Both the position numbers and the translations under genes were made by a program. This document shows, in pieces, positions 9,502-27,910 of a stretch of DNA of 32,000 nt (positions within the stretch are counted from its first letter, which is position 1; each line of letters starts with the position of its first letter). Origin of the DNA: Nostoc punctiforme PCC 73102 (GTDB taxonomy: Bacteria; Cyanobacteriota; Cyanobacteriia; Cyanobacteriales; Nostocaceae); NCBI RefSeq assembly GCF_000020025.1, contig NC_010631.1, forward strand, positions 210,001-242,000, given 5' to 3'. The notes below the pieces were generated by a model. The model had not been told where the DNA came from and searched no databases. It was given only the letters and a program-made list of their open reading frames with translations.

Positions 9502-10677
9502 ATGTTCTACCGTCTCAAATTTTTCACCGTTGTAACTTTAGTGTTTTCATTGACATACACCGTCGGTGCTGCTCAATCAAGGACAGGGGAAATTGTGCAA
9601 GTACCTCCGAAAGCAGAGACGCAAACCACGCAACCTGGCACAGAAGGGCTGGTGCATCTATTGCAATTAGGCGAATACCAGTTAAATAAAAATCAGTTTC
9701 AAGAAGCTTTAGGGACATTTCAAGCAGTTTTAACTATTGTCAGACTTATAAAAGAACGCCAACTCGAAGCGAGAACTCTCCACAATATTGGGGTAGTATA
9801 CCGTGAAATGAAAAACTACCCTCAAGCTTTAGAGTATTATCAACAAGCTTTAGCTGTTCGCATAGATGTCGGCAATCGCCGTGGGCAAGGCATAACTCTT
9901 AATGATATTGGCTTAGTCTACGATAACCAAAAACAATATACCAAAGCACTGGAGTTTTATCAGCAAGCTTTAGCTATTCATAAAGAAGTTAGCAACAAGG
10001 CAGACGAGGGAACAACTCTCAACAATATCGGGGTAGTATACCGTAAAATGAAAAACTACCCTCAAGCTTTAGAGTATTATCAACAAGCTTTAGCTGTTCG
10101 CATAGATATAGGTGATCGTCGCGGACAAGGTATAACTCTTAATGATATTGGCTTAGTTTACTACAACCAACAAGAATATCCCAAAGCCTTAAATTATTAT
10201 CAGCAAGCTTTAGCTATTCATAAAGAAGTTAGCAACAAGATAGATGAAGGGACAACACTTGATAATATTGGTTTAGTTTACGTTAAGCAAATTGATTTAG
10301 TTTCTGATAAACAAAAAGATTATACTAAAGCCTTAAATTATTATCAGCAAGCTTTAGCTATTCATAAAGAAGCTAGCAACAAGGCAGACGAGGGAACAAC
10401 TCTCAACAATATCGGGGTAGTATACCGTAAAATGAAAAACTACCCTCAAGCTTTAGAGTATTATCAACAAGCTTTAGCTGTTCGCGTAGATATAGGTGAT
10501 CGTCGCGGACAAGGTATAACTCTTAATGATATTGGCTTAGTTTACTACAACCAACAAGAATATCCCAAAGCCTTAGATTATTATCAGCAAGCTTTAGCTA
10601 TTCATAAAGAAGTTGCTAAGGCATCATGTAAAAATAACTTGAACAATTTGCTGAATGGTAAGATGATCAGAATGTAA
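9502..10677 (+). pseudogene. 5' fragment (signal peptide + TPR array) of a TPR-CHAT gene interrupted by an IS
   Basis: ATG 9502 follows AGAGGA. The N-terminus MFYRLKFFTVVTLVFSLTYTVGAAQ is signal-peptide-like. About seven 40-aa TPR units follow (YPQALEYYQQALAV...G.TLNDIGLVY). Native coding ends at 10619. The last 19 codons and the stop come from the IS end. Confidence 0.85.
9958..10614 (+). repeat. Near-perfect 273-bp direct repeat within the TPR array
   Basis: 9958-10230 versus 10342-10614 (offset 384 bp) differ at 3 positions by direct comparison. Older, more diverged units lie upstream. Confidence 0.9.
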
Positions 10678-11952: not shown

Positions 11953-11956
11953 CTAA

Positions 11957-14390
11957 CAAGGCAGACGAGGGAACAACTCTCAACAATATTGCAGAACTTT
12001 ATAAAAACAAGTATGAGTATACCAACGCTTTAAAGTTTTATCAACAAGCCTTAGTAATTCGCCAACAAACTAACGATAAGTATGGGCAATGGACAACTCT
12101 TGACAATATTGGAGAAGTTTACAACCAATTGGGACAGTATGGTAAAGCTTTAGATTACTATAAACAAGCTTTAGAGATTGTCAAATACATCAGTTATGAA
12201 AAACAGCGTAAGGTTGCAGAATTATTGACTCGTGGACAGATTGCTACAGTTTACCAAAATCTGGGTCAAGATTCAAAACTTTCGGAATTTACTGAGATGA
12301 TAGCAAATATTAGCAAAGATAAAAACTCCTCTAAAGAAAATATTTTGTTTCAGTATGCTTTAGCAATTGCTAGAGAAGTTGAAGAACCTGGTAAAAGAGA
12401 AAATTCCAATAAAATTGAGGGATTTGCCGACTATTTGACTAAACGATTAGAGTCTGATCAACGATATCTAGTCGAAGTAAGAAAAAATGGTAACCCGGGC
12501 CTTGTGGATAAAATAACACTCCAAAATCCAGAAATAGATTACACAAATTTGGGGGTAATGTATAGCGCTTCTAAACAGTACGCCAAAGCGTTGGAGTTTT
12601 ATCAACAAGCTTTAGCCGCCTACACACGCACTAAAGAAAAGGTAGAGCAAGCAACAATTCTTAACTATATAGGGGTAGTTTATTACAACCAAGGACAATA
12701 CTCTAAAGCATTGGAGCTATTTTGGCAAGCAGTAACTCTTCGTCAAGAAATCAACGATAAAGCAGGAGAAGGACAAACTCTTTATAATATTGGAACAACC
12801 TACAACGCTTTGGGCCAATATACTAATGCTGAAAAAGCTCTATTTAATGCCATCAAGTTTTTAGAATATCTGCGAACAGGATTAACTGATGAGCAGAAAA
12901 TATCAATTTTTGAAACGCAAATTAAGACATATCGAAGATTACAACAAGTTTTGATTACTCAAAATAAAAATGACCTGGCGTTGGAAATTGCAGAAGGTGG
13001 TAGGGCAAGAGCCTTTATAGAATTATTAACCTCGAAAATATCACCTAACCTGAACAATAAAATTAATATAAAATCACCAAATATTGAGCAAATTAAGCAA
13101 GTAGCAAAACAACAAAATGCCACACTTGTTGAATATTCAATTAATGAAACTCAGCTATATATATGGGTCGTGAAAGCCACTGGTGAAGTTACTTTCCGCA
13201 AAGCTGACCTCAAACTCCTGTTGCAGCAACAAAACATCTCCTTAATAGATAAAGTCGCCCAGGCTCGTCAGTCAATTTTTAAAGGTATGAATCTTGCCAG
13301 TCGTGGTAATAAAATCATCTTTGCCCCTGGCGATCGCGTTAAACTCAATGATGATGCTCCAGACTGGGAAGCTTGGCAAGTAGTTTCTGTAGATGTTAAA
13401 AACGGCAAAACTACTATCCGCTTACCCTCTTGGGAGGCAGAAAAACCAGCAATAGAACGTCCAATAATAGATGTTGTCGAAAAGGTGACAAACAGCCCTA
13501 GAGCAAATGCTAAAAACACCCAATTACAAGAACTTTATCAGCTACTGATCCAACCAATTGCAGACTTACTGCCAAAAGAAGAAACAGCCCGCGTCATCTT
13601 CATTCCCCAAAACGCTTTATTTCTCGTACCCTTCCCAGCATTACAAGACCCATCAGGAGAATATTTAATCGATAAACACACTATCCTCACCGCTCCCTCA
13701 ATTCAAGTATTAGATTCTACTCATAAGCTCCGACAAAAAGTTCCAGGTTTAGCTAAAGATATCTTGGTAGTTGGTAATCCTACAATGCCCAAAGTTTCAA
13801 AAAAACCTGGAGAACCACTTAAGCAGTTAAGTGCGCTTCCTGGTTCACAGAAAGAAGCTCTTGCAATTGCTTCCTTCTGGAAAACTCAAGCTTTGATTGG
13901 TAATCAAGCTACAAAAAAAGCAGTGTTGCAAAAACTACCACTAGCTAAAATCATTCATTTAGCAACTCATGGCTTATTGGATGATATTCAGGGATTGGGA
14001 AGTTCTATCGTCTTTGCTCCTGAAGGAAAGGATAACGGTTTGTTGACAGCAGAAGATATCCTAAATTTGTATGCACAACCACAAGGTTCTACCTTAAGTG
14101 CCGAATTAGTCGTATTAAGTGCTTGCGATACTGGGCAGGGGAGGCTAACAGGTGATGGGGTAATTGGGTTATCTCGCTCCATAATTGCCGCAGGGGTTCC
14201 TAGTGTGATAGTTTCTCTGTGGTCGATACCAGATGCACCCACTGCTGAATTAATGACAGAATTTTATGAAAATTTCCGCAAAAATCCTGACAAAGCTACT
14301 GCTTTGCGGCAAGCGATGCTGATGACGAAGAAAAAACATCCCAATCCTGCTGAATGGGCAGCTTTTACTCTGATTGGAGAGTCTGAATAA
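11957..14390 (+). pseudogene. 3' fragment (TPR units + CHAT protease domain) of the IS-interrupted TPR-CHAT gene
   Basis: In frame with the 5' fragment once the IS is removed; the reconstructed product is 1183 aa. CHAT hallmarks are GRARAFIELL, His in IIHLATHG (13968-13970) and Cys in VVLSACDTG (14124-14126). The first in-frame start after the IS is TTG 12129. Confidence 0.85.
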
Positions 14391-14407
14391 CTCAAGTTTG
14401 CTTACCA
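13326..14407 (+). repeat. Highly similar paralogous segment A (3' part of the CHAT gene plus ~17 nt past the stop)
   Basis: Aligns with 20362-21446 (offset 7036-7039). It includes a 102-nt run with no mismatch (14221-14322 versus 21260-21361). Similarity decays sharply upstream of 13326. Confidence 0.85.
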
Positions 14408-14729
14408 TACTATTTAATGTAAGCAATTCCGAAGATTAAAAAGCTAATAAAGTTTTGCTCTAAAGGGGTTTGGTTGGAGACAGATTTTATAAATATTTAT
14501 TTTTTTGCTCAAAGGATAAAAAAGCTATCAAAAATTCCCTCAAATTGACAATATTTTCTGGAATCCGCTTCGATAAATTTGTATCTTAAAATAGATAGTA
14601 AATAATATTACTTAGCTTATCGCGCTCTTTATTTTCGGCTGGAGTTTCCAGTGTTATGGTTCTTTATGGGATATATCGAATCAAGAATTTTGATTGGTGT
14701 GTTGTAGTTCCAGATTAGGTTTGGAAATT

Positions 14730-17700
14730 ATGGGCGATCGCGCAAGCAGAATCATTTTAATTGCTTTGAGTGCTTTTCTGGTAACGATTGCACCTACATT
14801 CCCGCAGAATTTTTCCGGGATTTTCTTTGCACCACAGGTGTTAGCACAAACACCAAATCAGCCAAACCCGCATAAAAACCCTGCGTTGGCTGTCACAGGG
14901 AGTTTTATTGATTACTTTGCAGAAGAGAGACAATTAAAAGGGCATGAGGGTAGCGTCAACAGCGCTAGCTTTAGTCCAGATGATAAGTTAATTGTGACAG
15001 CTGGTGCAGATAACACCGCCCGTGTCTGGGATTTTTCAGGCAAACAGCTAGTGGAGTTAATTGGGCATCAAAGCAATGTTTATAGTGCGAATTTTAGCCC
15101 CGATGGTAAGCTGATTGTCACTGCCTCTTTTGATGGTACTGCCCGTATTTGGGATATTTCGGGCAAACAGCTAGTTGAGCTAAAAGGACACCAAGGTAAT
15201 GTTTATAGTGCGAATTTTAGCTCAGATGGTAAATGGATAATCACGGCAAGTGCAGATAAAACTGCCCGTATTTGGGATATTTCTGGTCAGCAAATAGCGC
15301 AAATTACAGGGCATGAAAACATTGTTACCAGTGCGAATTTTAGCTCAGATGGTAAACGGATAATTACGGCAAGTGCAGATAAAACTGCCTGTATGTGGGA
15401 TTTATCAGGTAAGCTATTGGTGCAGTTGAAAGGGCATACAGATACGGTATGGAGTGCGAATTTTAGCCCCGATGGTCAGAGGATAGTTACAGCATCTGAT
15501 GATAAAACGGCGCGAGTGTGGGATTTATCTGGCAAGGTGCTAGCAGAGTTAAAGGGACATGGTGATAGCGTATACAGTGCTAGCTTTAGTCCAGATGGCA
15601 AGTTGATTGTGACAGCTTCTATTGATAGAACTGCGCGAGTATGGGATGCTACAGGAAAAGTAATAGGTAAACTGGAAGGGCATCAGGGAAGTGTAAACAA
15701 CGCAAAGTTTAGCTTTGATGGAACCCAGATTGTCACTGCATCATCTGATGGTTCCATCCTTATATGGAACACTTCTAAGAAGATATTTATCGAACTATTA
15801 GGGCATCTCGGTGAGGTTTTCAGTGCCAGTTTTAGCCCAGATGGTAAGCAGATTATCACTACATCAAAAGATGGCACAGTTAGGATATGGAACACTTTAA
15901 ACAAGCAGATAACTGAAATTAAAGCACAGGTTGCTGTCCAAAGCGCAAATTTTAGCCCCAATGGGAAGCTAATTGTCACCACATCTTCAGAGAAATTTGC
16001 TCAAGTGTGGGATACCTCAGGTAAAATTTTAACGGAACTTAAAGGACATGAGAGTCGTGTAAATAGTGCAACTTTTAGTCCTGATGGTAAGTTCATTGTC
16101 ACCGCATCTGACGATACAACAGCACGAATATGGGATATTTCTGGTAAGCTGCTAACTGAACTAAAAGCAGATCACGGTAGGGTTGTTAGTGCTAATTTTA
16201 GTTATGATGGCAAACAGATTATCACTGGATCGGGCAATACAGCCTTTATATGGAATACATCAGGCAAGCTGATAAGTAAATTAGAATTAAAAGGACCCCA
16301 GTACTCTGTTATCAGCGCCAATTTTAGCCGCGATCGCCAGTTAATTGTCACTGCATCTCATGATGGCAGTGCTTGGATATGGGATTCTTCCGGTAAAGTA
16401 ATAACAAAAATAGAGTTTCCGAATAACATAACTGAAAACTATAGCGAAAATCGTGTTTACGGCGCTGATTTCACTCCAGATGGTAAATATTTAGTAACGG
16501 TAACTTCCGATGGAGGTAGAGTCTGGGATATCTCCGGTAAGCTAATAGCTGAATTCAAAGGACATCAGGATGAAGTCATCAATTTTAGTTTAAGTCCAGA
16601 TGGTAAGCAGATGCTCACGGCATCTGATGATAGAACTGTACGAGTGTGGGATATTTCCAATAAGTCACTGGCTCAAATAAATTCGTCACAAATACCTTCT
16701 ACGAATAATCAGACTAAACTGCAATACAAAGATGAAGATAAAAGTATTACCAGTCTTGCTTTTAGTCCTGATAATCAATTCTTTGTCACTGGCTCTAAAA
16801 GTGGTAATGTGAAAATTTGGGATACCTCAGGCAAACTCCTAAATGAACTAAGAGGACATGAATATCAAATAAATGGTATAAACTTTAGCTCTGATGGCAA
16901 ATCTATTCTTACTGTATCTTTGGATTTTGCAAGAGTTTGGAGTAACTCTGGGAAATTGCTAGCAGAAATTAAAGGCAAACAGAAGCATGACGCTGCTTTA
17001 ACAAGTGCAAGCTTGAGTCCAGATGGCAAGTTGATTGTTACCGGATATTCAAGTTTTCAACAAAATGCTTATTTGTGGGATAGTTCTGGGAAGCAGCAGA
17101 TGGAACTTCAAGGGCATCAAAACTTTGTTAATAGTGTAAATTTTAGTCCAGATGGCAAGTTGATTGTTACAGCATCGGATGACGAAACTGCCTGTATTTG
17201 GGATACGACTGGTAAGCTGCTAAACGAATTGAAAGGAAATTCCAGTAAAGTAAAAAGCGCTAGTTTTAGTCCTGATGGTAAAAAAATTATTACTACATCG
17301 AGCGATGGTACTGCTATTATTTGGGATACTTTTGGTAAGCTGCTTGCCAAGTTTAATATAGGTTTCCCAATTAGTAGTTATAGCTCAACTAGGGTGAATT
17401 TTAGCCCTGATGGTAGGTTCATTATTGCTCAAATTGAGGGTGGTTTCACTCGTTTGTGGGGTGCAGATGGCACTGTGATTTCCACAGATGAGAGTTTAGG
17501 AAATATCACTTTTAGTCCTGATGGTAAGTTAATTGCCATTGTACGTAGAGGTGGTAGCGCTTCTGTGGGGATTCCTGAGGAAAAAAAACTAGCAATACTT
17601 CAGATAGAGCCTTATCTTGTGCAGAGAGTCATTTTTAGCCATAACAGTAAGTTTTTCGTCACAATATCTGAAATTCCTTTCTCCTCTGTCGATAAAATCC

Positions 17701-17750
17701 AAGTATGGGATGTTGGTAAGCTTGACTGGATGACAGAAACATCAAAATAG
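14730..17750 (+). CDS. WD40-repeat protein, ~22 blades, with N-terminal signal peptide/anchor
   Basis: ATG 14730 (the ORF is open from TTG 14694). N-terminus MGDRASRIILIALSAFLVTIAPTF...APQVLAQTP. It is followed by 22 units of about 41 aa of the form GH...V.SANFSPDGK.IVTAS.D.TARIWD.SGK...ELK, counted through the FSPDG-like cores. Confidence 0.9.
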   Translation: MGDRASRIILIALSAFLVTIAPTFPQNFSGIFFAPQVLAQTPNQPNPHKNPALAVTGSFIDYFAEERQLKGHEGSVNSASFSPDDKLIVTAGADNTARVWDFSGKQLVELIGHQSNVYSANFSPDGKLIVTASFDGTARIWDISGKQLVELKGHQGNVYSANFSSDGKWIITASADKTARIWDISGQQIAQITGHENIVTSANFSSDGKRIITASADKTACMWDLSGKLLVQLKGHTDTVWSANFSPDGQRIVTASDDKTARVWDLSGKVLAELKGHGDSVYSASFSPDGKLIVTASIDRTARVWDATGKVIGKLEGHQGSVNNAKFSFDGTQIVTASSDGSILIWNTSKKIFIELLGHLGEVFSASFSPDGKQIITTSKDGTVRIWNTLNKQITEIKAQVAVQSANFSPNGKLIVTTSSEKFAQVWDTSGKILTELKGHESRVNSATFSPDGKFIVTASDDTTARIWDISGKLLTELKADHGRVVSANFSYDGKQIITGSGNTAFIWNTSGKLISKLELKGPQYSVISANFSRDRQLIVTASHDGSAWIWDSSGKVITKIEFPNNITENYSENRVYGADFTPDGKYLVTVTSDGGRVWDISGKLIAEFKGHQDEVINFSLSPDGKQMLTASDDRTVRVWDISNKSLAQINSSQIPSTNNQTKLQYKDEDKSITSLAFSPDNQFFVTGSKSGNVKIWDTSGKLLNELRGHEYQINGINFSSDGKSILTVSLDFARVWSNSGKLLAEIKGKQKHDAALTSASLSPDGKLIVTGYSSFQQNAYLWDSSGKQQMELQGHQNFVNSVNFSPDGKLIVTASDDETACIWDTTGKLLNELKGNSSKVKSASFSPDGKKIITTSSDGTAIIWDTFGKLLAKFNIGFPISSYSSTRVNFSPDGRFIIAQIEGGFTRLWGADGTVISTDESLGNITFSPDGKLIAIVRRGGSASVGIPEEKKLAILQIEPYLVQRVIFSHNSKFFVTISEIPFSSVDKIQVWDVGKLDWMTETSK

Positions 17751-17862
17751 TTTAACATCTGTGCGTTTGCTTATTTAGGGAAAAGGAGACGAACGAAACC
17801 CTTAAGGTTAAAGCAATAGAAACATTTTGAAGCAAATCGGAATTAAAAGCATAAGACTGATT

Positions 17863-17907
17863 CTTTTCCTCATTGCCCTTTCCCTCTTCCCTTTCACATG
17901 ATTCATC
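17863..17907. repeat. Purine/pyrimidine-rich repeat family, copy 2 (inverted orientation)
   Basis: CTTTTCCTCATTGCCCTTTCCCTCTTCCCTTTCACATGATTCATC. Its reverse complement resembles the left arm of the 31543-31634 copy (GGGGATTCATGTTAAAGGGGAAAGGGATGA). Confidence 0.4.
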
Positions 17908-17916
17908 TTTAAAATT

Positions 17917-20900
17917 ATGACTTTCACTAAGTTTGCATGTGGGTGCATATTGTTGTTAATATCGGCTTGTTTATTTATCCCCAATCGCCAACTAATTGTC
18001 ACCGCGTCCACTATTTTTAAAGATATTGCTCAAGCGTCAGGTGCTTCAAAATATTCACCTATTGAACTTAACCCCTACGCAAGTACAGTTGAAAATGCCA
18101 GTTTTAGCCCTGATGGAAGGTTTATTATCACTGGATTTGATAATGGAACTGCCCGTATTTGGGATAAAAGTGGTAATCTAATCACTGAATTAAAAGCGGG
18201 AGAAAATAAAGTAAAAAGTGCCTTTTTTAGTCCTAACAGTAAGTTTATTGTCACCTCATCTAACCGCACAAAAATATGGGACACTTCAGGAAAAAAACTA
18301 GTGGAATTAAAAGGGTATAATCCAAGTATTAGTCCTGATTGCAAGTTTATTGTTACAACCTTTTTGGGCGCTACGCTATGGGATACATCGGGTAAACTGC
18401 TAGTGGAATTTAAAGAGGATAAAGATAATCCTGTTATGAGTGCTAGCTTTAGCCCTGATAGTAAACTAATTATCACGGCATTACGTAATGGTATTGTACG
18501 TGTGTGGGATACAAATGGTAAACTCATAACTGAATTTACAGCTGATCGCAATCTTCTCAAAAGTGCTGTTTTTAGTCCAAATGGTAAGCTAATTTTCACT
18601 ACTTCTTTTGGTACTTCTAGAGTATGGGATATTTTAGGTAAGCTGCTAGCAGAACTCAAAGGTCGCCATCTATCGATTCAAAGTGCCAATTTTAGTCCTG
18701 ATAGTAAGCTGATTGTCACCACATCTTTAAATAATAGTGACTTTTTTAATAGGAATGCCCAAGTGTGGGATACATCAGGTAAAGAAATAGCTGAACTTAA
18801 AGGACATGAAGGGGATGTTACAGGGGCGAACTTTAGCCCTGATGGAAAGCGCATAGTCACTGTTTCTAATGATGGGACTGCCCGGATATGGGATACAAAT
18901 GGTAAAATGCTGCTTACCTTGAAAGGACATCAGGGAAATGTTAGCAAAGCTAGTTTTAGCCCTGATGGACAACTTGTAATTACCGCTTCTGATGATGGTA
19001 CGTCACGGTTGTGGGATGCAAATGCCAAACAATTAGCTACACTAAATCTGGGTGAAAAAATTGCTATTTCCCCGAAAGCTGAAGCCGATCGTCTCCGTGA
19101 TCTACAATTCTACTCCCCTAACTGCGCTCTAGCATTCGACCCCTGGCAAAAAGCTCTAAAACTTTACCAACAAATCTCCGATAAGGAAAACCAAGCTGTT
19201 ATCCTAGAAAAACTTGGCAACGCTCACTACTGCATTGGTTATTATACCAGCGCGATTCAAAGTTATACTCAAGCAACTGCCATTGCCCAGAAATTCAATT
19301 ACCCACAACTCCAAGCCAACAATCTTTCCAATCTCGGCAATGTTTATAACACCCTAGCTGACTATGAAACTGCAATTAATAAATATAACGAAGCCTTAAA
19401 GCTCCTCCCCAAAGATAACTCCCCAAGCAAAGCCAAGATTCTTCAAGGACGAGGAAATAGTTACAATTCTCAAAGTAAATATCGTGAAGCTATTCAAGAT
19501 TACTTGCAAGCATTAGCTATCGATGAAGTAATTAAAAATACCTCTGGCGTAGCTGAAAATAAAGTCAATTTGGCAAGTATTTATCTGGCTTCTGGAGATA
19601 CCAATAAAGCAACTCAATATTATAAAGAAGCATTAGATATCAAGCCGATGGAAGCACTATCTGGTTTGGGAAATGTTTACTGGACGCTTGGTGAAATCAA
19701 TAAAGCCATTGACTTATATCAGCAGAGTTTAGCTAAAGCACAGCAACAAGAAAATAAAGAAGGTGAAGGAAATGCACTCAATAGCTTAGGATTTACTCTG
19801 TATAAATCAGATAGACTCACTGAAGCAGAACAATATTTGCGTCCAGCGATCGCTATTTGGGAAAATCTCCGCATAGTATTAGACGATGGCAATAAAATTT
19901 CCATCTTTGAAAAACAAACTCGTACCTATCGTCTGTTACAAGAAGTGTTGATTGCTCAAAATAAAATAACTGAAGCCTTGGAAGTATCTGAAAGTGGTAG
20001 GGCAAGAGCTTTTATTGAATTATTAAGTAAACGATTATCTCCTAATCAAACAGAGCAATTAAAAGTTCCTGTATTGAATACTGAACAGATGAAACAAGTT
20101 GCTAAAAATGAAAATGCAACCCTGGTTCAATATTCGATTATTACTGATGAATTTAAAGTTGGCGGTAAACTGCAAACTCAAGATTCAGAACTATATATTT
20201 GGGTAATCAAACCTACAGGTGAGATTAAATTTTATCCAATTGACCTCAAACCCCTATGGCAGCAACAAAATACCTCCCTAAGAAATAAAGTTGACCAAAC
20301 CCGTCAGTCGATTGTTAAAGATGTGAGCCTTACTAGTCGTAGTAATAACATCACTCTCACACCAGGAGATCGCGTTAAACTCAATGACGATGAGCCAGAC
20401 TGGGAAGCTTGGCAAGTAGTATCAGTTGATATTAAAAACGGTAAAATCACTATTCGCTTGCCCTCTTGGGAGGCAGAAAAACCAGCAATAGAACGTCCAA
20501 TAATAGATGTAGTGAAAAAAATCGGTATAAATAGTTTTGTTGCAAACGCCAAAAACTTACAGTTACAGGAACTTTACCAGCTACTTATCCAACCAATTGC
20601 AGACATACTGCCAAAAGAAGAAACAGCTCGTGTCATCTTCATCCCCCAAGATGCTTTATTTTTAGTTCCTTTCCCAGCATTGCAAGATTCATCGGGGCAA
20701 TACTTAATTGATAAACATACTATCCTTACCGCCCCTTCCATTCAAATATTAGAATCTACTCATAAACTACGGCAAAAAGTTCCAGGTTCAGCCAAAGATA
20801 TTTTGATAGTCGGTAATCCCACAATGCCCAAGGTTTCAAAAAACCCTAGAGAATCACCTCAGCAATTAGGTGCGCTTCCTGGTTCAGAAAAAGAAGCTCT

Positions 20901-21429
20901 TGCAATTGCTTCATTTTGGAAAACTCAAGCTTTGATTGGTAATCAAGCTACTAAAAAAGCAGTGTTGCAAAAACTACCACTAGCTAAAATCATTCATTTG
21001 GCAACTCATGGCTTGTTGGATGATATTCGAGGATTGGGAAGTTCTATTGTCTTTGCTCCCGAAGGACAGGATAACGGTTTGTTGACAGCAGAAGACATCC
21101 TAAAATTGTACACAGCACTCCAAGGTTCTACCTTAAGTGCCGAATTAGTCGTATTAAGTGCTTGCGATACGGGACAGGGTAGGCTGACAGGTGATGGGGT
21201 AATTGGGTTATCTCGTTCCATAATTGCCGCAGGGGTTCCCAGTGTTATAGTTTCCTTGTGGTCGATACCAGATGCACCCACTGCTGAATTAATGACAGAA
21301 TTTTATGAAAATTTCCGCAAAAATCCTGACAAAGCTACTGCTTTGCGGCAAGCGATGCTGACGACGAAGAAAAAACATCCCAATCCTGTTGAATGGGCAG
21401 CTTTTACTCTGATTGGAGAATCTGAGTAA
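17917..21429 (+). CDS. WD40 (8 blades) + TPR + CHAT caspase-like protease, lipoprotein-type signal
   Basis: 1170 aa. N-terminus MTFTKFACGCILLLISACLF (ISAC fits a lipobox). It has 8 FSPDG-type WD40 units, then TPR units (aa ~400-650), then a CHAT domain with GRARAFIELL, His in IIHLATHG (21007-21009) and Cys in VVLSACDTG (21163-21165). Confidence 0.9.
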   Translation: MTFTKFACGCILLLISACLFIPNRQLIVTASTIFKDIAQASGASKYSPIELNPYASTVENASFSPDGRFIITGFDNGTARIWDKSGNLITELKAGENKVKSAFFSPNSKFIVTSSNRTKIWDTSGKKLVELKGYNPSISPDCKFIVTTFLGATLWDTSGKLLVEFKEDKDNPVMSASFSPDSKLIITALRNGIVRVWDTNGKLITEFTADRNLLKSAVFSPNGKLIFTTSFGTSRVWDILGKLLAELKGRHLSIQSANFSPDSKLIVTTSLNNSDFFNRNAQVWDTSGKEIAELKGHEGDVTGANFSPDGKRIVTVSNDGTARIWDTNGKMLLTLKGHQGNVSKASFSPDGQLVITASDDGTSRLWDANAKQLATLNLGEKIAISPKAEADRLRDLQFYSPNCALAFDPWQKALKLYQQISDKENQAVILEKLGNAHYCIGYYTSAIQSYTQATAIAQKFNYPQLQANNLSNLGNVYNTLADYETAINKYNEALKLLPKDNSPSKAKILQGRGNSYNSQSKYREAIQDYLQALAIDEVIKNTSGVAENKVNLASIYLASGDTNKATQYYKEALDIKPMEALSGLGNVYWTLGEINKAIDLYQQSLAKAQQQENKEGEGNALNSLGFTLYKSDRLTEAEQYLRPAIAIWENLRIVLDDGNKISIFEKQTRTYRLLQEVLIAQNKITEALEVSESGRARAFIELLSKRLSPNQTEQLKVPVLNTEQMKQVAKNENATLVQYSIITDEFKVGGKLQTQDSELYIWVIKPTGEIKFYPIDLKPLWQQQNTSLRNKVDQTRQSIVKDVSLTSRSNNITLTPGDRVKLNDDEPDWEAWQVVSVDIKNGKITIRLPSWEAEKPAIERPIIDVVKKIGINSFVANAKNLQLQELYQLLIQPIADILPKEETARVIFIPQDALFLVPFPALQDSSGQYLIDKHTILTAPSIQILESTHKLRQKVPGSAKDILIVGNPTMPKVSKNPRESPQQLGALPGSEKEALAIASFWKTQALIGNQATKKAVLQKLPLAKIIHLATHGLLDDIRGLGSSIVFAPEGQDNGLLTAEDILKLYTALQGSTLSAELVVLSACDTGQGRLTGDGVIGLSRSIIAAGVPSVIVSLWSIPDAPTAELMTEFYENFRKNPDKATALRQAMLTTKKKHPNPVEWAAFTLIGESE

Positions 21430-21446
21430 CTCAAGTTTAGTTACCA
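20362..21446 (+). repeat. Highly similar paralogous segment B (partner of 13326-14407)
   Basis: See segment A. The proteins are nearly identical from PGDRVKLNDD to the C-terminal FTLIGESE. Confidence 0.85.
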
Positions 21447-21468
21447 ATAAATCGCTAAGGAGTGTGAA

Positions 21469-21843
21469 ATGCCAGAAGAAAATTCTATCGGATTAGCAGA
21501 ATTGATTGAGCAGATAAAGCAAGAATTGCTTTCAACAGAGGTAGAAGGAGAAAAACCCATACCCTTGTTTAGTGTTGACCAAGTGAGTTTGGAATTGCAA
21601 GTGACAGCACGTAAAGAGGGGAAAGCTGGAATCAAAGTCTACGTTGTGGAATTAGGTGGTGGAGGCAGCCGTGATGATGTACAAAAAGTTACTGTCACCT
21701 TAACCCCTTTATTGAGTAAAGAAGAGCGAATTGCGCTTTATAAAACACGCTATCCCCAAAAGTGGAAGTTGCTGGAAGAAACTAGTATAGAAGGATTGCT
21801 GAAGGGCAGCAATGACGAACCTCTTGGCGACCTCTTAGGCTAA
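21469..21843 (+). CDS. trypco2-like small protein (trypsin/caspase co-occurring domain 2)
   Basis: 124 aa, with RBS AAGGAG 8 nt before the ATG. The core IGLAELIEQIKQEL...PLFSVDQVSLELQVTARKEGKAGIKVYVVELGGGGSRDDVQKVTVTLTPL matches my recollection of the trypco2 pattern (helix, then two beta hairpins ending ...h.V.L.L.P). It starts 39 bp after the upstream CHAT gene and ends 16 bp before the next one. Confidence 0.65.
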   Translation: MPEENSIGLAELIEQIKQELLSTEVEGEKPIPLFSVDQVSLELQVTARKEGKAGIKVYVVELGGGGSRDDVQKVTVTLTPLLSKEERIALYKTRYPQKWKLLEETSIEGLLKGSNDEPLGDLLG

Positions 21844-21859
21844 ATAGCAAGGATGGCTA

Positions 21860-24433
21860 ATGGAGCTATTAAAGGTATACCTATCTCCCATTAATGAGGC
21901 TGATTTCAAAGTCAGCGTCAATGGGTTACGAGTTGGTCAAGCGGAAGCCAACTCAACATTACCTTTTTGGCAAGACGGAATAAACTTGCTGATTACCGTT
22001 ATTAAATCTCTAGAAGCTATTCGTTTTCGACCAGAGGACTTTCAGCGCTCTGGGGAACAAGATTGGATGGTGCAAGTTGGTCTACTAGTTCAAGACCGAA
22101 AAGCCTTTCATCCCTATTTTTTAACAAACATTGGCAAGGCACTGTATCAATCACTTTTTCCCCCAGGCTCTAAAGTCGAAAAAATGCTGCAAAATGCGAT
22201 TAATTTAGCCCAAAATAACGGAACTCAACTGCATATACAACTAGAAATAGCGGCAGATATCTTAGGCTCAACTCGTTTACCTGATTATCCTTGGGAATTA
22301 ATGCATGATGACCGAGGGTTTTTGACTCAACATCAAGTTACCTTCTCTCGTTACATTACCTATGATGCTGCACCGCCGAAGCTACCATCGATGGAGCAAG
22401 TTAACGTTTTGTTAATATCCTCTGCGGCTTCTGACCCAGAAAATGCTTTGGAAAAGCTGCCACAGCAAGAACAACTTGCAGTACGCAGAGGTTTAGGAAT
22501 AGCCGAGAAAGAAGGTCATATTCGGCTAGTTGAACTGAAACCCCCGACTTTAAAAGCTTTGCGGGATTATCTGACTGAACATCGGAATGAGACAGCACCT
22601 CATGTTATCCATTTTGATGGACATGGCTTGTTTGGTAAATGCTGTAACAATACATTGGACAATGGTCAGCTATGTCGAACTATACATAAAGGTATAAAAA
22701 TAAACAACTGTCAACGTTGCTATGCCTTACTTCCTGAACCGCAAGGATATCTAGTTTTTGAAGATGAAACTGGCAAACCAAATTATGTGAGTGCTAAGGA
22801 AATTGGTATACTGCTACAGCAAAATAGTTTTACTGATAATTCTAAACAGCTACGTGGTGTAGCTTTAGTGGTATTGAGCGCCTGTCAATCTGGTTTGGCG
22901 TTAACTGGAACTTCAGTGTTTAATGGTGTAGCTCAAAGCTTAATTGCTCACCGCACTCCAGCAGTGGTAGCGATGCAGTATTCTGTGAGTGTGCCAGGTG
23001 CAACAGCTTTTAGTGAGCAATTTTATCGTTCACTTGGTCAAAAAGACCCCTTGGCAATGGCAGTGAGTCAAAGCCGAGAAGCAATGGGTACAGAAGGCAA
23101 GCAGTGGTATCGTCCAGTACTTTATCTGCGCTGGCAAGATAACGAAGGCGGTCAACTCTTTGCAGCACCGACTTCAGTTATTCCTACACCAATTAAATTA
23201 AAACCCTCTGTTTTTGTTCCATCTGCAAGTTTAGTCATAACAGCTTTGGTGTTTGGAGTACGACTGCTAGGAATACTGCAATCATCAGAGCTAAAGATAT
23301 TTGACCAGATGATGCGACTGCGCCCAGATGAGGGAATAGACCCTCGAATTTTGGTTGTTACTATTGATGATGAAGATTTAAAATATCAAAATTCTAAGGG
23401 AATGAAAGGCCGTGGATCATTATCCGACATTGCACTACATAAACTTTTAGAGAAACTACAACCCAATCAACCAAGAGTAATTGGCTTAGATATCATTCGT
23501 GATTTTCCTGTTAGCAACGACCAGCCAGAATTAGCAAATAAATTACAAAATAATGATAATTTTATTGCCATCTGCATAGGTAACGACCTCACAACTGGGG
23601 ATAAAGGTATTGAACCTCCACCAGAAGTTCCAACAGAGCGTTTAGGTTTTGCTGATGTGGTTATAGACGATGATAAAATTCTCCGTCGGTATCTGTGGAA
23701 TGCAAATTTTAACAGTAAAACTGCTTGTGAAACAGAAGATCCTTTAAGCCTTAAGCTTGCACTATATTACTTAGCTAAAAAAGGTATTAAACCTGAAACC
23801 ACGCATTCGATAGATTTATTATTAGGGAAAACTCGCTTACAACGTTTACAGGCAAGAGCAGGAGGCTACCAAAATTTAGACAATGATGGCTACCAAATGC
23901 TACTTAATTATCGCTCTCGAAATATTGCCAGACAAGTTTCCCTAAGAAATATCCTAGAAAATAGTTTTGACCCTTCCTGGGTGAAAGACCGAATAGTTAT
24001 CATTGGCGTTACTGCTAGAAGTGTAAAAGATAATTTTTATACCCCATACAGTCTTAACGAACAGTCAGACCAAATAATGCGGGGTGTATTTGTTCAAGCC
24101 CAAATGGTAAGTCAAATTACTAGTGCGGCATTAGATGGTCGTCCTCTGCTGGGAGTACTGCCTTGGTGGGGAGATGTTTTTTACATCTGGCTATGGTCTT
24201 TAGCTGGAGGTGTGTTTGGCACAGTTGTGTTGCAGAGACTTGCTTGGCGCGATCGCAAAATAATTCTTGTGATTACAAGCATAGGTATTATTTTTGTTAT
24301 CTCCTATAGCATCTGCCTTTTTCTTTTAATTCATGGCCACTGGCTACCATTCCTTCCTTCTACCATAGCTTTCCTTACTACAGGTGTAATTACGTTTAGC
24401 TATATCCACCAATTACCGTATAAACGCTGTTAA
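21860..24433 (+). CDS. CHAT protease fused to a transmembrane CHASE2 sensor module
   Basis: 857 aa. CHAT His in VIHFDGHG (22622-22624) and Cys in VVLSACQSG (22883-22885). One TM span lies at ~23222-23278. A CHASE2-like segment follows (SELKIFDQMMRLRPDEGIDPRILVVTIDDEDL ... RIVIIGVTARSVKDNFYTPY). Three C-terminal TM spans lie at 24164-24406. No other output domain is present. Confidence 0.85.
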   Translation: MELLKVYLSPINEADFKVSVNGLRVGQAEANSTLPFWQDGINLLITVIKSLEAIRFRPEDFQRSGEQDWMVQVGLLVQDRKAFHPYFLTNIGKALYQSLFPPGSKVEKMLQNAINLAQNNGTQLHIQLEIAADILGSTRLPDYPWELMHDDRGFLTQHQVTFSRYITYDAAPPKLPSMEQVNVLLISSAASDPENALEKLPQQEQLAVRRGLGIAEKEGHIRLVELKPPTLKALRDYLTEHRNETAPHVIHFDGHGLFGKCCNNTLDNGQLCRTIHKGIKINNCQRCYALLPEPQGYLVFEDETGKPNYVSAKEIGILLQQNSFTDNSKQLRGVALVVLSACQSGLALTGTSVFNGVAQSLIAHRTPAVVAMQYSVSVPGATAFSEQFYRSLGQKDPLAMAVSQSREAMGTEGKQWYRPVLYLRWQDNEGGQLFAAPTSVIPTPIKLKPSVFVPSASLVITALVFGVRLLGILQSSELKIFDQMMRLRPDEGIDPRILVVTIDDEDLKYQNSKGMKGRGSLSDIALHKLLEKLQPNQPRVIGLDIIRDFPVSNDQPELANKLQNNDNFIAICIGNDLTTGDKGIEPPPEVPTERLGFADVVIDDDKILRRYLWNANFNSKTACETEDPLSLKLALYYLAKKGIKPETTHSIDLLLGKTRLQRLQARAGGYQNLDNDGYQMLLNYRSRNIARQVSLRNILENSFDPSWVKDRIVIIGVTARSVKDNFYTPYSLNEQSDQIMRGVFVQAQMVSQITSAALDGRPLLGVLPWWGDVFYIWLWSLAGGVFGTVVLQRLAWRDRKIILVITSIGIIFVISYSICLFLLIHGHWLPFLPSTIAFLTTGVITFSYIHQLPYKRC

Positions 24434-24495
24434 GAAGACAGAGAGTATGTCTGTCGTCGTTTTGTAGAGATATTTATTCCATACTTCTATAAAAA

Positions 24496-25350
24496 ATGAT
24501 AAAGTTACTTTTTCGACATTTGAGTTTAGCTTTAATTTTTCCCTTAACATTAGGTGTTTATTCTCTTGTTAAAGCAGCCCCACGCTCTAATTATGTTTGG
24601 GAAGATGGGGTTACTTTAAAGCAGCAACAAAGACAACAGCCTCAAACCCCAAAACCTACAAATACGCCTAAAACTTCAGGACTAATTTCCCAGATTATTC
24701 ACTTTTTATTACCCTCAAAAGGCGCGCCTGGTCAGCGAAGCTATGCTGCGGCAAGAGCGGATTGTCCAGCTATTGAAAAACCTCTGACGGCTTTAGTTCC
24801 AAATACAAACATTGGATTAACTATTTCCGAACGTCCGACATTCTGGTTTTATATTCCTTACCAGCCTACAGACACAAATCCAGTTGAATTTTTGCTAATA
24901 AATGATAAAAATAATCCGGTTTATAAAACTACTTTTCAGTTAACAAATATACCAGGGATTATTAGTGTCAACTTACCTCAAAATATACCAGCATTAGAAA
25001 TTGGTAAAAAATATAATTGGGTCTTATCTTATATGTGCGATCCAGCAAATCGCCTGAAGGATCCTTTTGTTAAAGGATATATTGAGCGAGTTTCTATCAA
25101 CTCTAATTTGAAAAATGATTTAGAGAAAGCAAGTAGACCGAGAGAGCGCATTTTGCTGTTCGCTGAAAATGGTCTTTGGTATGATGCTCTGACGATCCTG
25201 GCTAACGAACGCCGTCAAAAACCCAAGGATGCACAGGTAACAAAAGATTGGAAAGATTTATTACTGTCCTCAGAAGGGGACTTAACAGAGATTAAAGAGA
25301 TTGTTTCAGAACCTATTGTCTCTTGCTGCCAAAATATTGTAACTCAATAG
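24496..25350 (+). CDS. DUF928 domain-containing secreted protein
   Basis: 284 aa. Signal peptide MIKLLFRHLSLALIFPLTLGVYSLVKA. A Gln/Pro-rich linker precedes a core with ERPTFWFYIPY...VEFLL...YKTTFQL...PGIISV.LP...LEIGKKYNW, as I recall for DUF928. It starts 62 bp after the CHAT-CHASE2 gene. Confidence 0.7.
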   Translation: MIKLLFRHLSLALIFPLTLGVYSLVKAAPRSNYVWEDGVTLKQQQRQQPQTPKPTNTPKTSGLISQIIHFLLPSKGAPGQRSYAAARADCPAIEKPLTALVPNTNIGLTISERPTFWFYIPYQPTDTNPVEFLLINDKNNPVYKTTFQLTNIPGIISVNLPQNIPALEIGKKYNWVLSYMCDPANRLKDPFVKGYIERVSINSNLKNDLEKASRPRERILLFAENGLWYDALTILANERRQKPKDAQVTKDWKDLLLSSEGDLTEIKEIVSEPIVSCCQNIVTQ

Positions 25351-25356
25351 CTGAAG

Positions 25357-25582
25357 CACCTGAAGTCCTTTAACTACCTGCCCCAGGAGTGTTAGCAGAT
25401 GCAGGTGATTTGCGATGGCGCAAGCGCCCAGCGTAGCTGATCGCATTAATCGGGTGTATTCGAGTGGGTTGGAAGAATCGGTGCAGAAGTTTTTGGAGTC
25501 GTTGGGGAAGCTGAATCGTGCTTATTTGACGGATTTAGAAGAGAAAGTGTTGAGTCTTCTGGAGTTAGAAATTATACCATAA
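25357..25582 (+). pseudogene. Decayed 3' fragment of a paralog of the 305-aa gene (8058-8975)
   Basis: HLKSFNYLPQEC*QMQVICD ... ADRINRVYSSGLEESVQKFLESLGKLNRAYLTDLEEKVLSLLELEIIP* aligns with HLKSFNYLPAECEQMRQICDRIRRLRKNESLEEAARAVLKHLGEVKRPYLTAFEGELLNFIEKKYLLQG* (8766-8975). The fragment has one in-frame TAG and a 25-nt frameshifting insert (25417-25441). Confidence 0.7.
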
Positions 25583-25637
25583 TGCTGCAAGTGATTAATT
25601 TTGGGATTCAAAGGATTCTACAAAGTAGAATTTTGAC

Positions 25638-26018
25638 TTGTGCATTTATACAGGTAGGGGTGAGATTTTGGTACTGATTATTAGGGAAAGAGCAACTCTC
25701 GAACAAGTGGAGTTAATGCTGCAAACTTTGCGAGTTTACATTAAAGTGGCAGTAGATATAGAAAGAGGGATTTTAGCTGGAGGAGGAGAGAAACACGCTT
25801 TCTGTGAAGCAGCATTGCTCGAAGACGGTAGTAAACAGCGAGATATCTGGGGTGCGGATTGGACTCCCTTTAACCAATCAATCGCCTATGAATCGATTAT
25901 TAACATACGTCCAAGCCAAAATAATCGCTCAATGGTAATTCAAGACCCAGCGATTAAAGAACGTGTTAAAAAAATAACTCAGGAGTTAATTGGTGGATAT
26001 GAACCAGAATTTAGATGA
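25638..26018 (+). CDS. DUF5674-like protein
   Basis: The core LIIRERATLEQVELMLQTLRVYIKVAVDIERGILAGGGEKHAFCEAALLEDGSKQRDIWGADW...INIRPSQNNRSMVIQDPAIKERV matches my recollection of DUF5674. The start is uncertain (TTG 25638 or TTG 25668). Confidence 0.6.
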   Translation: MCIYTGRGEILVLIIRERATLEQVELMLQTLRVYIKVAVDIERGILAGGGEKHAFCEAALLEDGSKQRDIWGADWTPFNQSIAYESIINIRPSQNNRSMVIQDPAIKERVKKITQELIGGYEPEFR

Positions 26019-26355
26019 AAAACAAGCACGGTTTCAAGGCGAAAATACATCACATCGCTTAGGTCATATAGCTTCTAATTTAGCTAGGCTGAGAACATTT
26101 TGTGACACTGCTTACCCTGAAGCGGTCAAAAGTGTTGCAGATGAAACTATGTGTTTTATCGAATGGACGGCAGCAGAAATTGAACCTGAATATGCTGAAG
26201 AACTGGTTAACATTCAAGTTCAACTGGCACGATGGAGATTAACTTTTGATAGTATTTGGTCTGATGGTAGCGAACGCAGAAATATGTCCGAGCAAGCTAG
26301 TGCTTGGTCAGAACAAGTATTAGATATGTCAGGGTTGTTGTCCGAATCCATCTAA
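25999..26355 (+). CDS. Hypothetical protein
   Basis: ATG 25999 (the ORF is open from TTG 25990) overlaps the end of the upstream gene by 20 nt. 118 aa, helical-looking, no family recognised. Confidence 0.5.
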   Translation: MNQNLDEKQARFQGENTSHRLGHIASNLARLRTFCDTAYPEAVKSVADETMCFIEWTAAEIEPEYAEELVNIQVQLARWRLTFDSIWSDGSERRNMSEQASAWSEQVLDMSGLLSESI

Positions 26356-26572
26356 AACTTTAATCATTGCGATATTCTAGATTTTGTAAAAAATATGAGC
26401 AATCACTTATAGTTTCTGGACAAATAATTCATTTTGTTAATCTGGAACGACTTGTAAGCTTAACTTCCCCATCAAAATTATTCAAATTATTTTTGCAAGG
26501 CTCCTAAGTAGGGCTTGCTTGAATAACTAACCAATCCTGATCTTTGCTTTCTTATTACTTTTTCAGCAACCT

Positions 26573-27193
26573 CTAAATAGGGGTCTTTTTTGGAATAGTT
26601 GACTTGACTGATTCACGCTCCTGTAATCTATTAAACCAGTCTCTCAAATAAGGATACTGAAGAAGCCAGTCTTCATTTAAGCGAAAGCTGTAATAACCGA
26701 GGGAACATAATGCTGCCACATCTGCTGCTGTCCATGTTTCACCCTCTAACAAATATTTAGTTGAACGCAGTTGTCCATCAAAGATTGGTAAAAGGCGATT
26801 AATTAATGTTTCATATTTTTTTCGATAATAAGCAGGAGCTAGATCACCCATAAAATTTAGTACCCATAAACCGATAATGTTGTCGCCTAAAGTATCTGCT
26901 AGTTGTTCCCATTTACGGCACTCAAGCCGTATGTGAGGAGCGCTTGGGTAAAAGCTAGGCTGTGGATAAGTTTCGTCTAGATACTCCGCAATCAATGTAG
27001 AGTCCCAAATTACCGTGCCATCTTGATCTACAAACACAGGGACTTGACCAATAGGAGAAATTTCAAGGAACTCAGGGGGTTTATTGGCTAAATTAATTTC
27101 TTTGAATTCACAATCTAAATTTTTCTCTATTAACAATATTCGGATTTTCCGAGAAAAGTTTGATTGCTGATGATAATATAACATTCTATTCAT
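26573..27193 (-). CDS. Glutathione S-transferase family protein
   Basis: Thioredoxin-like N-domain MLYYHQQSNFSRKIRILLIEKNLDCEFKEINL...ISPIGQVPVFVDQDGTVIWDSTLIAEYLDETYP, then a helical C-domain. Possible starts are ATG 27193 or ATG 27184 (the ORF is open from TTG 27211). Confidence 0.8.
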   Translation of the reverse strand: MNRMLYYHQQSNFSRKIRILLIEKNLDCEFKEINLANKPPEFLEISPIGQVPVFVDQDGTVIWDSTLIAEYLDETYPQPSFYPSAPHIRLECRKWEQLADTLGDNIIGLWVLNFMGDLAPAYYRKKYETLINRLLPIFDGQLRSTKYLLEGETWTAADVAALCSLGYYSFRLNEDWLLQYPYLRDWFNRLQERESVKSTIPKKTPI

Positions 27194-27439
27194 AGATTTA
27201 TTCTTACTCAAAAACTGGGTCTAATAATAAACTGCATTCAAAAATAGTACCCCATGATTGTGACGAAGGAAGCAATCTCATGGACTCTCACCAAAACCGT
27301 TTTATCTTAATCTCTTAGGCATGGTAAAACATTGAATTACAACACCTAAAGTCTTGCAATTATCTACTTCCCGAATGTCAGTAGATGCAGTCTTTAGTTG
27401 CGTTAGTGGACTGGTAATTGAAGATTGGGAGTAAGAGCA

Positions 27440-27910
27440 ATGAAAACTAATGCTGCTCGACTACTTGATAAACTAGGCATCTCCTATCAAATTCTCACTT
27501 ATGAAGTAGATCCTGATGATTTGGCCGCCGAAAGTACAGCGTACAAAGTCGGTCTTCCACCAGAGCAAGTTTTTAAAACTCTAGTAGTCAGAGGTGACAC
27601 AACAGGTCTCTGTTTTGCTGTTGTGCCGGGAAATGCTCAGTTAAACCTAAAAGCTTTAGCTCGAATTTCAGGAAACCGGAAGGTTGAGACAGTTGCCCTG
27701 AAGGAAGTCCAGCCACTAACAGGATACATCCGTGGGGGTGTGACAGCTTTAGCCAGTAAAAAAGACTATCCCGTTTACCTTGATGAAACGGCAACTCTAT
27801 TTGAGCAGATTACTGTTTCTGGTGGAATGCGAGGAATGCTACTTCTGCTATGCCCATCTGATTATTTACGTGCAGTCAAAGGTACTTTGGGAGCAATTGT
27901 ACAAAATTAG
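27440..27910 (+). CDS. ybaK: Cys-tRNA(Pro)/Cys-tRNA(Cys) deacylase YbaK
   Basis: MKTNAARLLDKLGISYQILTYEVDPDDL...EQVFKTLVVRGD...FAVVPGN.QLNLKALA...KVE.V...EV..LTGYIRGGV...YPVYLDET...ITVSGGMRG is the characteristic YbaK pattern. ATG 27440 lies inside the ORF that opens at 27425. Confidence 0.85.
   Translation: MKTNAARLLDKLGISYQILTYEVDPDDLAAESTAYKVGLPPEQVFKTLVVRGDTTGLCFAVVPGNAQLNLKALARISGNRKVETVALKEVQPLTGYIRGGVTALASKKDYPVYLDETATLFEQITVSGGMRGMLLLLCPSDYLRAVKGTLGAIVQN

Follow-up and report, generated by a model that had tools for sequence, protein, structure and literature searches.

The CHAT-CHASE2 protein of Nostoc punctiforme as a possible membrane sensor-protease for an adjacent Trypco2/Pepco effector

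The stretch of Nostoc punctiforme PCC 73102 DNA analysed here, of 32,000 nucleotides (nt) and referred to as the window (NCBI RefSeq assembly GCF_000020025.1, contig NC_010631.1, positions 210,001 to 242,000 of the forward strand; positions below are those of the window), contains a gene for a membrane protein in which a caspase-like CHAT protease domain precedes a CHASE2 sensor domain. The gene lies immediately behind a small gene of the Trypco2/Pepco family and, with a confidence somewhat better than even, the pair is read as a two-gene module in which the membrane CHAT-CHASE2 protein is the sensor-protease half and Trypco2/Pepco the effector. A preliminary description, made from the sequence of the CHAT-CHASE2 gene, had taken the protease to be the end of the pathway. 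This view is incomplete, the Trypco2/Pepco gene upstream, the DUF928 gene downstream and the secreted CHAT proteins encoded nearby having been missed.

Trypco2 was named as a trypsin-co-occurring domain (Kaur 2020, PMC7159879), has been found beside a CHAT-TIR protein (Doré et al. 2024) and was renamed, jointly with Trypco1, as "Pepco" (Evans et al. 2025 preprint, bioRxiv 10.1101/2025.11.14.688446). Pepco pre-assembles as a denaturation-resistant 9-10-mer beta-barrel, which turns into a lethal membrane pore when its charged, unstructured C-terminal tail is cut off by the protease encoded next to it (Evans et al. 2025). The features of a Pepco-type module are found in the window, where Trypco2 is adjacent and co-oriented, the protease is of a kind that carries a variable sensor and the small protein has the Pepco layout. 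In fact, only 16 nt separate the end of the Trypco2 gene from the start of the CHAT-CHASE2 gene, both having the same orientation. The window Trypco2 is 100% identical to an entry named 'trypco2 family protein [Nostoc punctiforme]', and its AlphaFold2 (AF2) monomer model is composed of a helix (residues 9-21), strands (39-50, 54-60 and 71-78), helices (84-112) and a disordered tail (113-124). Helix 9-21 is amphipathic and the C-terminal tail is charged, being disordered past K112. According to this model and to an alignment of 40 sequences, the layout is that of Pepco, with an amphipathic N-terminal helix, beta-strands and a charged unstructured tail. Moreover, Lys112 is the only invariant residue within the C-terminal 39 residues (after E85) of 40 Trypco2 homologues and is situated at the order-to-disorder boundary of the model, alignment and model thus pointing to it as a candidate P1 residue of a CHAT cut. 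A PDB sequence search with Trypco2 gave only chance-level matches to acyl-carrier proteins (E ~0.4).

The association of Trypco2 with the protease extends well beyond the window. Trypco2 is directly upstream in six of the six CHAT-CHASE2 loci with gene tables, as well as in loci where the protease carries NB-ARC+TPR or consists of the sensor-less module. GTDB species-representative genomes were scanned and the matches searched with custom hidden Markov models, upstream DNA being present at 36 cyanobacterial loci; in 34 of these 36, Trypco2 preceded the CHAT module directly, whatever the sensor. In Chloroflexota metagenome-assembled genomes (L050, L051, L055, L057, L061), where the identity of the CHAT module is 29-35%, Trypco2 was observed downstream of the protease gene.

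The CHAT-CHASE2 open reading frame (ORF) begins with an ATG preceded, 7 nt upstream, by an AAGGA ribosome-binding site, and the N-terminus MEL(L/F)K.. is kept among homologues. The exact protein is annotated in UniProt as "Putative Chase2 sensor protein" of Nostoc punctiforme PCC 73102. With a reporting limit of E <= 0.01, Pfam gave only CHAT (PF12770; residues 92-410, E 1.6e-21, 77.5 bits against a cut-off of 24) and CHASE2 (PF05226; residues 460-784, E 6.3e-67, 226.3 bits against 26.3, covering positions 2-256 of the 257 of the model), E-values which place both matches far beyond chance. It can therefore be agreed with the preliminary description that residues ~470-800 are CHASE2 and that the polypeptide has no other enzymatic domain. 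Membership of Peptidase_C14 (PF00656) was rejected on the same search.

The catalytic dyad of the CHAT domain, which had already been described as intact, is formed by His255 (in the motif FDGHG; codon 22622-22624) and Cys342 (LSACQSG; codon 22883-22885), both of them invariant in 25 of 25 full-length homologues and in all 119 proteins with the CHAT module. Across most of the core, the predicted local distance difference test (pLDDT) of the AF2 model is 70-89. When the full-length model was compared with solved structures by Foldseek, the matches to its CHAT part were SAVED-CHAT (8tl0, E 5.6e-7), separase (9hm7) and DdvA (8rot), with probabilities of 0.98-1.0, followed by weaker matches to caspases 3, 6 and 9. 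Structurally, the modelled core thus has the caspase/hemoglobinase fold, and a cysteine protease is predicted. Hundreds of proteins have an N-terminal part that is 50-59% identical to residues 1-440 but differ in their C-termini, which can be CHASE2, NB-ARC+TPR STAND NTPases, GUN4, EAD adaptors or nothing, the sensor-less forms (e.g. L008) having 601 amino acids (aa). By sequence comparison, residues 1-440 are a constant module consisting of an N-terminal alpha+beta domain (strands 2-10, 15-22 and 26-33 and helices 44-52 and 66-72 in the AF2 model), the CHAT core and a four-cysteine insert. In the latter, C262, C284 and C287 are cysteine in 119 of 119 relatives and C272 in 118, a conservation which suggests that the insert is probably a zinc knuckle, that is, a putative structural zinc site. 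Those parts of the CHAT-related literature that were examined make no mention of this insert.

Transmembrane (TM) segments were located with a 19-residue Kyte-Doolittle hydropathy scan and with an AF2 full-length model built from 25 homologues (mean pLDDT 77). Both place one TM before CHASE2 and three behind it. The hydropathy peak of the first corresponds to SASLVITALVFGVRLLGIL (residues 455-473, nt 23222-23278), and further spans follow CHASE2 at about residues 772-791, 800-822 and 828-850; the AF2 helices comprise residues 449-469, 769-794, 800-824 and 831-856, with pLDDT of 87-94 for the TMs and 81-94 over CHASE2. The position previously given to TM1, nt 23222-23278, agrees exactly with the peak, while of the three C-terminal spans formerly placed at 24164-24406 the number and the start are right and the end lies nearer 24427. 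The domain order of the preliminary description likewise matches Pfam, hydropathy and AF2, and the gene is confirmed as real and intact, encoding CHAT, TM1, CHASE2 and three TMs in this order before the stop codon.

Positively charged residues are concentrated ahead of TM1, between TM2 and TM3 and in the C-terminal HQLPYKRC. Eight Lys/Arg residues are found in the three segments that are cytoplasmic under an N-in orientation, four of them in the loop QRLAWRDRK alone, and this clustering argues for an N-in topology with CHASE2 outside. Furthermore, Cys572 (23573-23575) and Cys623 (23726-23728) are conserved in 143 of 144 CHASE2 modules, whatever the fused domain; their conservation suggests that they likely form a periplasmic disulfide, and the pair could serve as a general CHASE2 marker. 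From sequence and model, an inner-membrane protein with a cytoplasmic CHAT and a periplasmic CHASE2 is deduced. A location of both domains on the same side of the membrane, which the preliminary description had mentioned as contrary to its proposal, did not emerge, hydropathy, positive-inside distribution and the conserved Cys pair all being consistent with N-in and CHASE2 out. As for CHASE2, the Foldseek matches listed for the full-length model included no solved structure corresponding to it. Between CHAT and TM1, the distance from F434 to G471 ranges from 28 to 71 residues among the 25 homologues, and their alignment over the linker contains no conserved motif, with both sequence and length varying.

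The protein ends only 7 residues after TM4. Its full-length homologues, with 833-898 aa and 40-95% identity, belong to many filamentous cyanobacteria, the genera including Nostoc, Dendronalium, Pelatocladus, Coleofasciculus, Stenomitos and Tildeniella. In the 25 that were aligned, the chain continues for only 28-42 residues beyond the invariant Trp828, where TM4 begins, and every one terminates within ~20 residues of TM4, no C-terminal output being found in relatives of 852-898 aa down to ~40% identity. With phmmer, 1.84 billion cluster representatives were searched exhaustively, and about ten 50%-identity clusters among the top 150 had the same CHAT-CHASE2 architecture. More than 20 representatives, of ~770-820 aa, align only from approximately the catalytic Cys onward and through the whole CHASE2 module, and these are probably a second, more populous protease-CHASE2 family.

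Among the 109 complete CHASE2 modules most similar to that of the window, 49 are extended N-terminally by 100 aa or more with nothing past the TMs, 46 stand alone and 14 have a C-terminal extension. In this cyanobacterial clade, an N-terminal partner with nothing past the TMs is the commonest fused arrangement, and hence the premise that CHASE2 normally stands in front of its outputs, from which the preliminary description started, does not hold there. The domain orders confirmed included Pkinase-CHASE2, shorter CHAT-CHASE2, Peptidase_C14-CHASE2, EAD1-CHASE2, EAD10-CHASE2, AAA_35-CHASE2 and CHAT-NB-ARC-CHASE2, together with a single case of CHASE2-cyclase; the kinases N-terminal to CHASE2 are Ser/Thr kinases.

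For the proposed module, the architecture, the dyad, the deduced topology and the gene partnerships come from the present analysis and the toxicity of Pepco from the literature; the steps of the mechanism, the position of the cut and the kind of cue are inferred for the CHAT-CHASE2 protein. A periplasmic, envelope or extracellular cue would be perceived by CHASE2, with the probable participation of the secreted proteins encoded nearby, DUF928 and TPR-CHAT/WD40. Clustering of the receptor would then gather the loosely tethered CHAT domains, which would be activated by induced proximity. Such a mode of activation is favoured over helix-borne allostery because the linker is disordered and variable in length, and the fact that the closest solved fold is the activated filament form of SAVED-CHAT (8tl0) was also counted for it. 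The active CHAT would remove the C-terminal tail of Trypco2, with a candidate cut after Lys112, and the processed beta-barrel may permeabilise the cytoplasmic membrane. As a result, the affected cell of the filament would be killed or arrested, either as abortive defence or as programmed cell death.

Several points weigh against this proposal. The characterised Pepco is cut by a trypsin-like serine protease, after a conserved Ile, and the cutting of a Pepco by CHAT is a prediction. A conserved Ile was sought in the Trypco2 tail across the 40 homologues and none was found, which lessens the identity with the characterised Pepco subtype, not with the module type, a cysteine protease being expected to differ in specificity. 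Confidence in the Trypco2 model is only moderate (pLDDT 67), and comparison of this model with the PDB by Foldseek returned nothing below E 0.9, with no solved Pepco there to compare. Two cyanobacterial loci (L038 and L048) have the CHAT module without Trypco2. The PADLOC models gave only a weak SAVED_CHAT match to the CHAT core (E 1.4e-4) and none for Trypco2, DUF928 or the Trypco2-CHAT pair. Finally, we know of no identified ligand for any CHASE2 protein.

On its other side, the CHASE2 gene has partners of its own. DUF928 is found directly downstream in 14 of 14 loci (L009, L010, L011 and the CHAT-CHASE2 loci L001-L006, L012-L014 and L017), the two genes often overlapping by a few bases, and the pairing holds with this CHAT module, with a Ser/Thr kinase, with a shorter CHAT or with EAD1. 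The DUF928 proteins have the conserved region GAPxGRxxGAAxR..C..PLTALVP, and the literature searched assigned no function to them. Every CHASE2 locus with a gene table examined also encodes, close by, a large CHAT protein that has TPR and, in many cases, POTRA domains. POTRA/TPR-CHAT or TPR-CHAT genes adjoin the CHASE2-DUF928 pair in L001, L002, L004-L006 and L009-L011, and L004, L005 and L006 additionally have ShlB and/or TPS genes of two-partner secretion. The triad of CHASE2, DUF928 and TPR-CHAT is independent of the cytoplasmic output, be it a kinase, EAD1 or CHAT. Going by its sequence, the WD40-TPR-CHAT gene of the window, with an intact dyad (IHLATHG and VVLSAC motifs), is the local counterpart of the periplasmic TPR-CHAT partner, and the 14-repeat WD40 protein would be a secreted or periplasmic beta-propeller. 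A five-gene cluster of two WD40 proteins, a hypothetical protein, a CHASE2 sensor and DUF928 had been noted in N. punctiforme and called species-specific (Hu 2017, PMC5587647); the 14-repeat WD40 gene is part of it. The loci compared here show its core to be widespread. The coordinates of the features are collected in Table 1.

Table 1. Features of the CHAT-CHASE2 locus in the window, in order of position
Feature	Position	Strand	Basis or remark
14-repeat WD40 protein, 1018 aa, signal-peptide-like N-terminus	14694..17750	+	Just upstream of WD40-TPR-CHAT gene
WD40-TPR-CHAT protein, 1170 aa, secreted or lipoprotein-like	17917..21429	+	Pfam; lipobox-like LLISAC
Trypco2/Pepco gene, 124 aa; predicted latent pore-forming effector and CHAT substrate	21469..21843	+	PF19631, E 1.1e-18
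Trypco2 Lys112 codon, candidate P1 of the activating cleavage (inference)	21802..21804	+	Alignment, AF2
CHAT-CHASE2 gene	21860..24433	+	857 aa; ACC85034.1 / WP_012413051.1 / UniProt B2JAT0
N-terminal alpha+beta domain, aa 1-90, part of the constant module	21860..22129	+	AF2; 50-59% identity in relatives with other C-termini
CHAT caspase-fold core, aa 92-410	22133..23089	+	Pfam; Foldseek
Four-cysteine insert C262, C272, C284, C287 between catalytic His and Cys (aa 262-287)	22643..22720	+	Alignment of 119 relatives
Flexible CHAT-TM1 linker, aa 412-446	23093..23197	+	pLDDT below 50
TM1, aa 449-473	23204..23278	+	Hydropathy peak 2.07; AF2 helix 449-469
Periplasmic CHASE2 domain (deduced), aa 474-768, with Cys572/Cys623	23279..24163	+	Pfam; AF2
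TM2-TM4, aa 769-856, with cytoplasmic loop (deduced) QRLAWRDRK between TM2 and TM3	24164..24427	+	Hydropathy, AF2
DUF928 gene, 284 aa, hydrophobic signal-peptide-like N-terminus	24496..25350	+	Pfam PF06051, E 1.1e-63

A more extended reading, which is given a small chance, unites these partners. CHASE2, DUF928 and the secreted TPR-CHAT or POTRA-CHAT proteins would be a single cyanobacterial envelope-surveillance receptor driving a two-compartment protease cascade with CHAT and the Pepco pore. The ligand of CHASE2 would be produced from DUF928, or from an exoprotein entering from outside, through cleavage by a caspase-like protease in the periplasm. The cascade would formally be like extrinsic apoptosis, with the same receptor plugged elsewhere into Ser/Thr kinases and death-like EAD adaptors.

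A non-lethal, regulatory proteolysis of the HetF type, where CHAT would degrade a cytoplasmic regulator depending on the state of the periplasm and Trypco2 would be an adaptor or inhibitor, is considered unlikely. HetF of Anabaena PCC 7120 has an arrangement like that deduced here, its N-terminal CHAT lying in the cytoplasm and being joined through a TM to a domain in the periplasm; it has been shown to be an active protease, and it degrades PatU3, which is related to cell division and heterocysts (PMC9457339). In addition, the NCBIfam HetF model (NF045509) gives a partial match with E 1.6e-10, and Trypco2 was termed an 'adapter' by Doré 2024. Nevertheless, the periplasmic domain of HetF is TPR and not CHASE2, and the match, confined to residues 81-260, scores 40 bits where the cut-off is 1200, on which grounds orthology with HetF was rejected. 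The partner that co-varies with the CHAT module is Trypco2 (34/36 loci), of a family shown to be a protease-activated toxin, and fusions of this module to partners typical of conflict systems, namely STAND NTPases and EAD death-like adaptors, occur as well.

Equally little credence is given to CHASE2 and the TMs being mainly an anchor or scaffold. In that case, the protease would be triggered in the cytoplasm, for example by a phage protein binding to the N-terminal alpha+beta domain or to the zinc knuckle, and would be kept tethered beside its membrane-acting substrate. The existence of the constant module with no recognisable sensor (601 aa, L008) suggests that some of the activation logic may lie within the module, and a disordered linker provides no obvious route for allosteric transmission. 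CHASE2, however, is highly conserved (226 bits, invariant Cys pair) and keeps its DUF928 and secreted-CHAT partners whichever the output, which argues for a functional periplasmic sensing unit rather than a passive anchor.

Autoproteolysis as in EACC1/EACC2-caspase systems, with CHAT cutting its own chain (e.g. in the linker 412-446) to free the protease or the N-terminal domain, is regarded as quite improbable as the basis of the system. Autopeptidase activation has been proposed for constant caspase modules with variable C-termini, CHASE2 among them (Kaur 2021), and the linker is exposed and disordered; yet it lacks a conserved motif and varies in sequence and length. Besides, autoproteolysis is compatible with a sensor-protease acting on Trypco2/Pepco and could be an extra step there. 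That the gene might be a 3'-truncated remnant of a longer CHASE2-output gene, a doubt raised in the preliminary description, can be rejected with near certainty, since 25 homologues stop likewise and DUF928 comes directly after the gene in all 14 loci.

As regards the locus itself, its exact proteins are found in NCBI as ACC85032, ACC85034 and ACC85035. The NCBI entry of the neighbouring DUF928 gene is labelled '(plasmid)' and belongs to a record of 354,564 bp, so that the window is apparently located on that plasmid; a megablast of 21400-25400 against the PLSDB plasmids gave no match. Promoter and terminator scans of 14-26.5 kb gave counts not above those of shuffled sequence. These scans were uninformative, and operon boundaries therefore rest on gene spacing only.

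Further upstream, a secreted TPR-CHAT gene (9496-14390, + strand) is apparently split by a transposase of the ISAz013 family (PF07592), itself broken into ORFs 10695-11291 and 11348-11926. The 5' piece (9496-10677) encodes a signal peptide and TPR repeats, and the 3' piece, with an open frame from 11919, TPR repeats and an intact CHAT up to its end at 14390. The CHAT-coding 3' ends of this gene (13205-14390, in a TPR-CHAT gene of 753 aa) and of the WD40-TPR-CHAT gene (20241-21429) share 88% DNA identity over 1191 nt, and the two proteins, of 753 and 1170 aa, are 62% identical over 770 aa. Such identities indicate that these periplasmic CHAT genes were duplicated, or underwent gene conversion, not long ago. 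Just downstream of DUF928 (25638-26355, + strand) lie a DUF5674 gene (126 aa) and, sharing its first 29 nt with this gene, an ORF of 121 aa with no family match.

Several known systems resemble the one proposed. The Pepco modules are alike in having a small Trypco2 immediately upstream of a sensor-fused protease, in the layout of this protein and in being common in cyanobacteria. The characterised example has a trypsin-like serine protease, a cytoplasmic Avs4 STAND sensor and a cut after a conserved Ile, whereas the window has a CHAT cysteine protease, a CHASE2 deduced to be periplasmic, an invariant Lys112 in the tail and DUF928 and secreted CHAT proteins attached. CHASE2 is not mentioned by Evans et al. 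2025 (bioRxiv 10.1101/2025.11.14.688446).

As for the receptor, a metacaspase-CHASE2 protein of Trichodesmium erythraeum with one plus three TM helices has the same inferred topology (Asplund-Samuelsson 2012, PMC3501461), the metacaspase-CHASE2 architecture was listed by Jiang 2010 (PMC2853523), and Fig. 6 of a 2020 review depicts a membrane orthocaspase being activated by ligand-bound CHASE2 (PMC7475262). The Trichodesmium orthocaspase-CHASE2 protein shares the order of N-terminal caspase-fold domain, one TM, CHASE2, three TMs and end, and receptor-triggered activation was proposed for it, but its protease is Peptidase_C14 instead of CHAT, and no link to Trypco2 is reported. A Peptidase_C14-CHASE2 relative (P0201) also appeared in the homology searches.

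The EACC2-caspase proteins have a constant caspase module and variable C-termini including CHASE2 (Kaur 2021, PMC8195603). They share with the window protein a constant part made of an N-terminal alpha+beta domain and a caspase fold, followed by a variable sensor region. However, the partners of the EACC2 systems are TRADD-N, or an ECF sigma factor together with DUF1822, whereas the window protein pairs with Trypco2, and none of those partners was found among the 14 ORFs scanned (8058-27910). The shorter CHAT-CHASE2 family (~690-800 aa), with DUF1822 upstream (L010), fits the EACC2 description better. SAVED-CHAT, Craspase (TPR-CHAT) and DdvA are likewise CHAT switches activated by a signal in defence, SAVED-CHAT being the best structural match, but their inputs are cyclic oligonucleotides or CRISPR RNA and not CHASE2. 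DdvA is a transmembrane CHAT protein (PMC11506125) with a periplasmic CHAT and an incomplete dyad, and resembles the neighbouring secreted TPR-CHAT genes more than CHAT-CHASE2.

Taken singly, the parts of the system are already known, namely the fusion of a caspase-like protease with CHASE2 (2010-2021), the N. punctiforme gene cluster (2017) and Pepco as a protease-activated pore (2025). The preliminary description had seen in the gene a bacterial analogue of receptor-coupled caspase activation. The architecture and the deduced topology fit this view, but its novelty does not stand, the idea having been published for sister families. A Pepco effector combined with a CHAT protease and a CHASE2/DUF928/secreted-CHAT sensor was not found in the literature searched.

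If the proposed module operates in this way, it would link bacterial cell death to a trigger outside the cytoplasm, whereas the characterised Pepco example answers to an intracellular phage protein. Moreover, the cleavage of Trypco2, or the lysis of the cell, would provide the first functional read-out for CHASE2 and DUF928.

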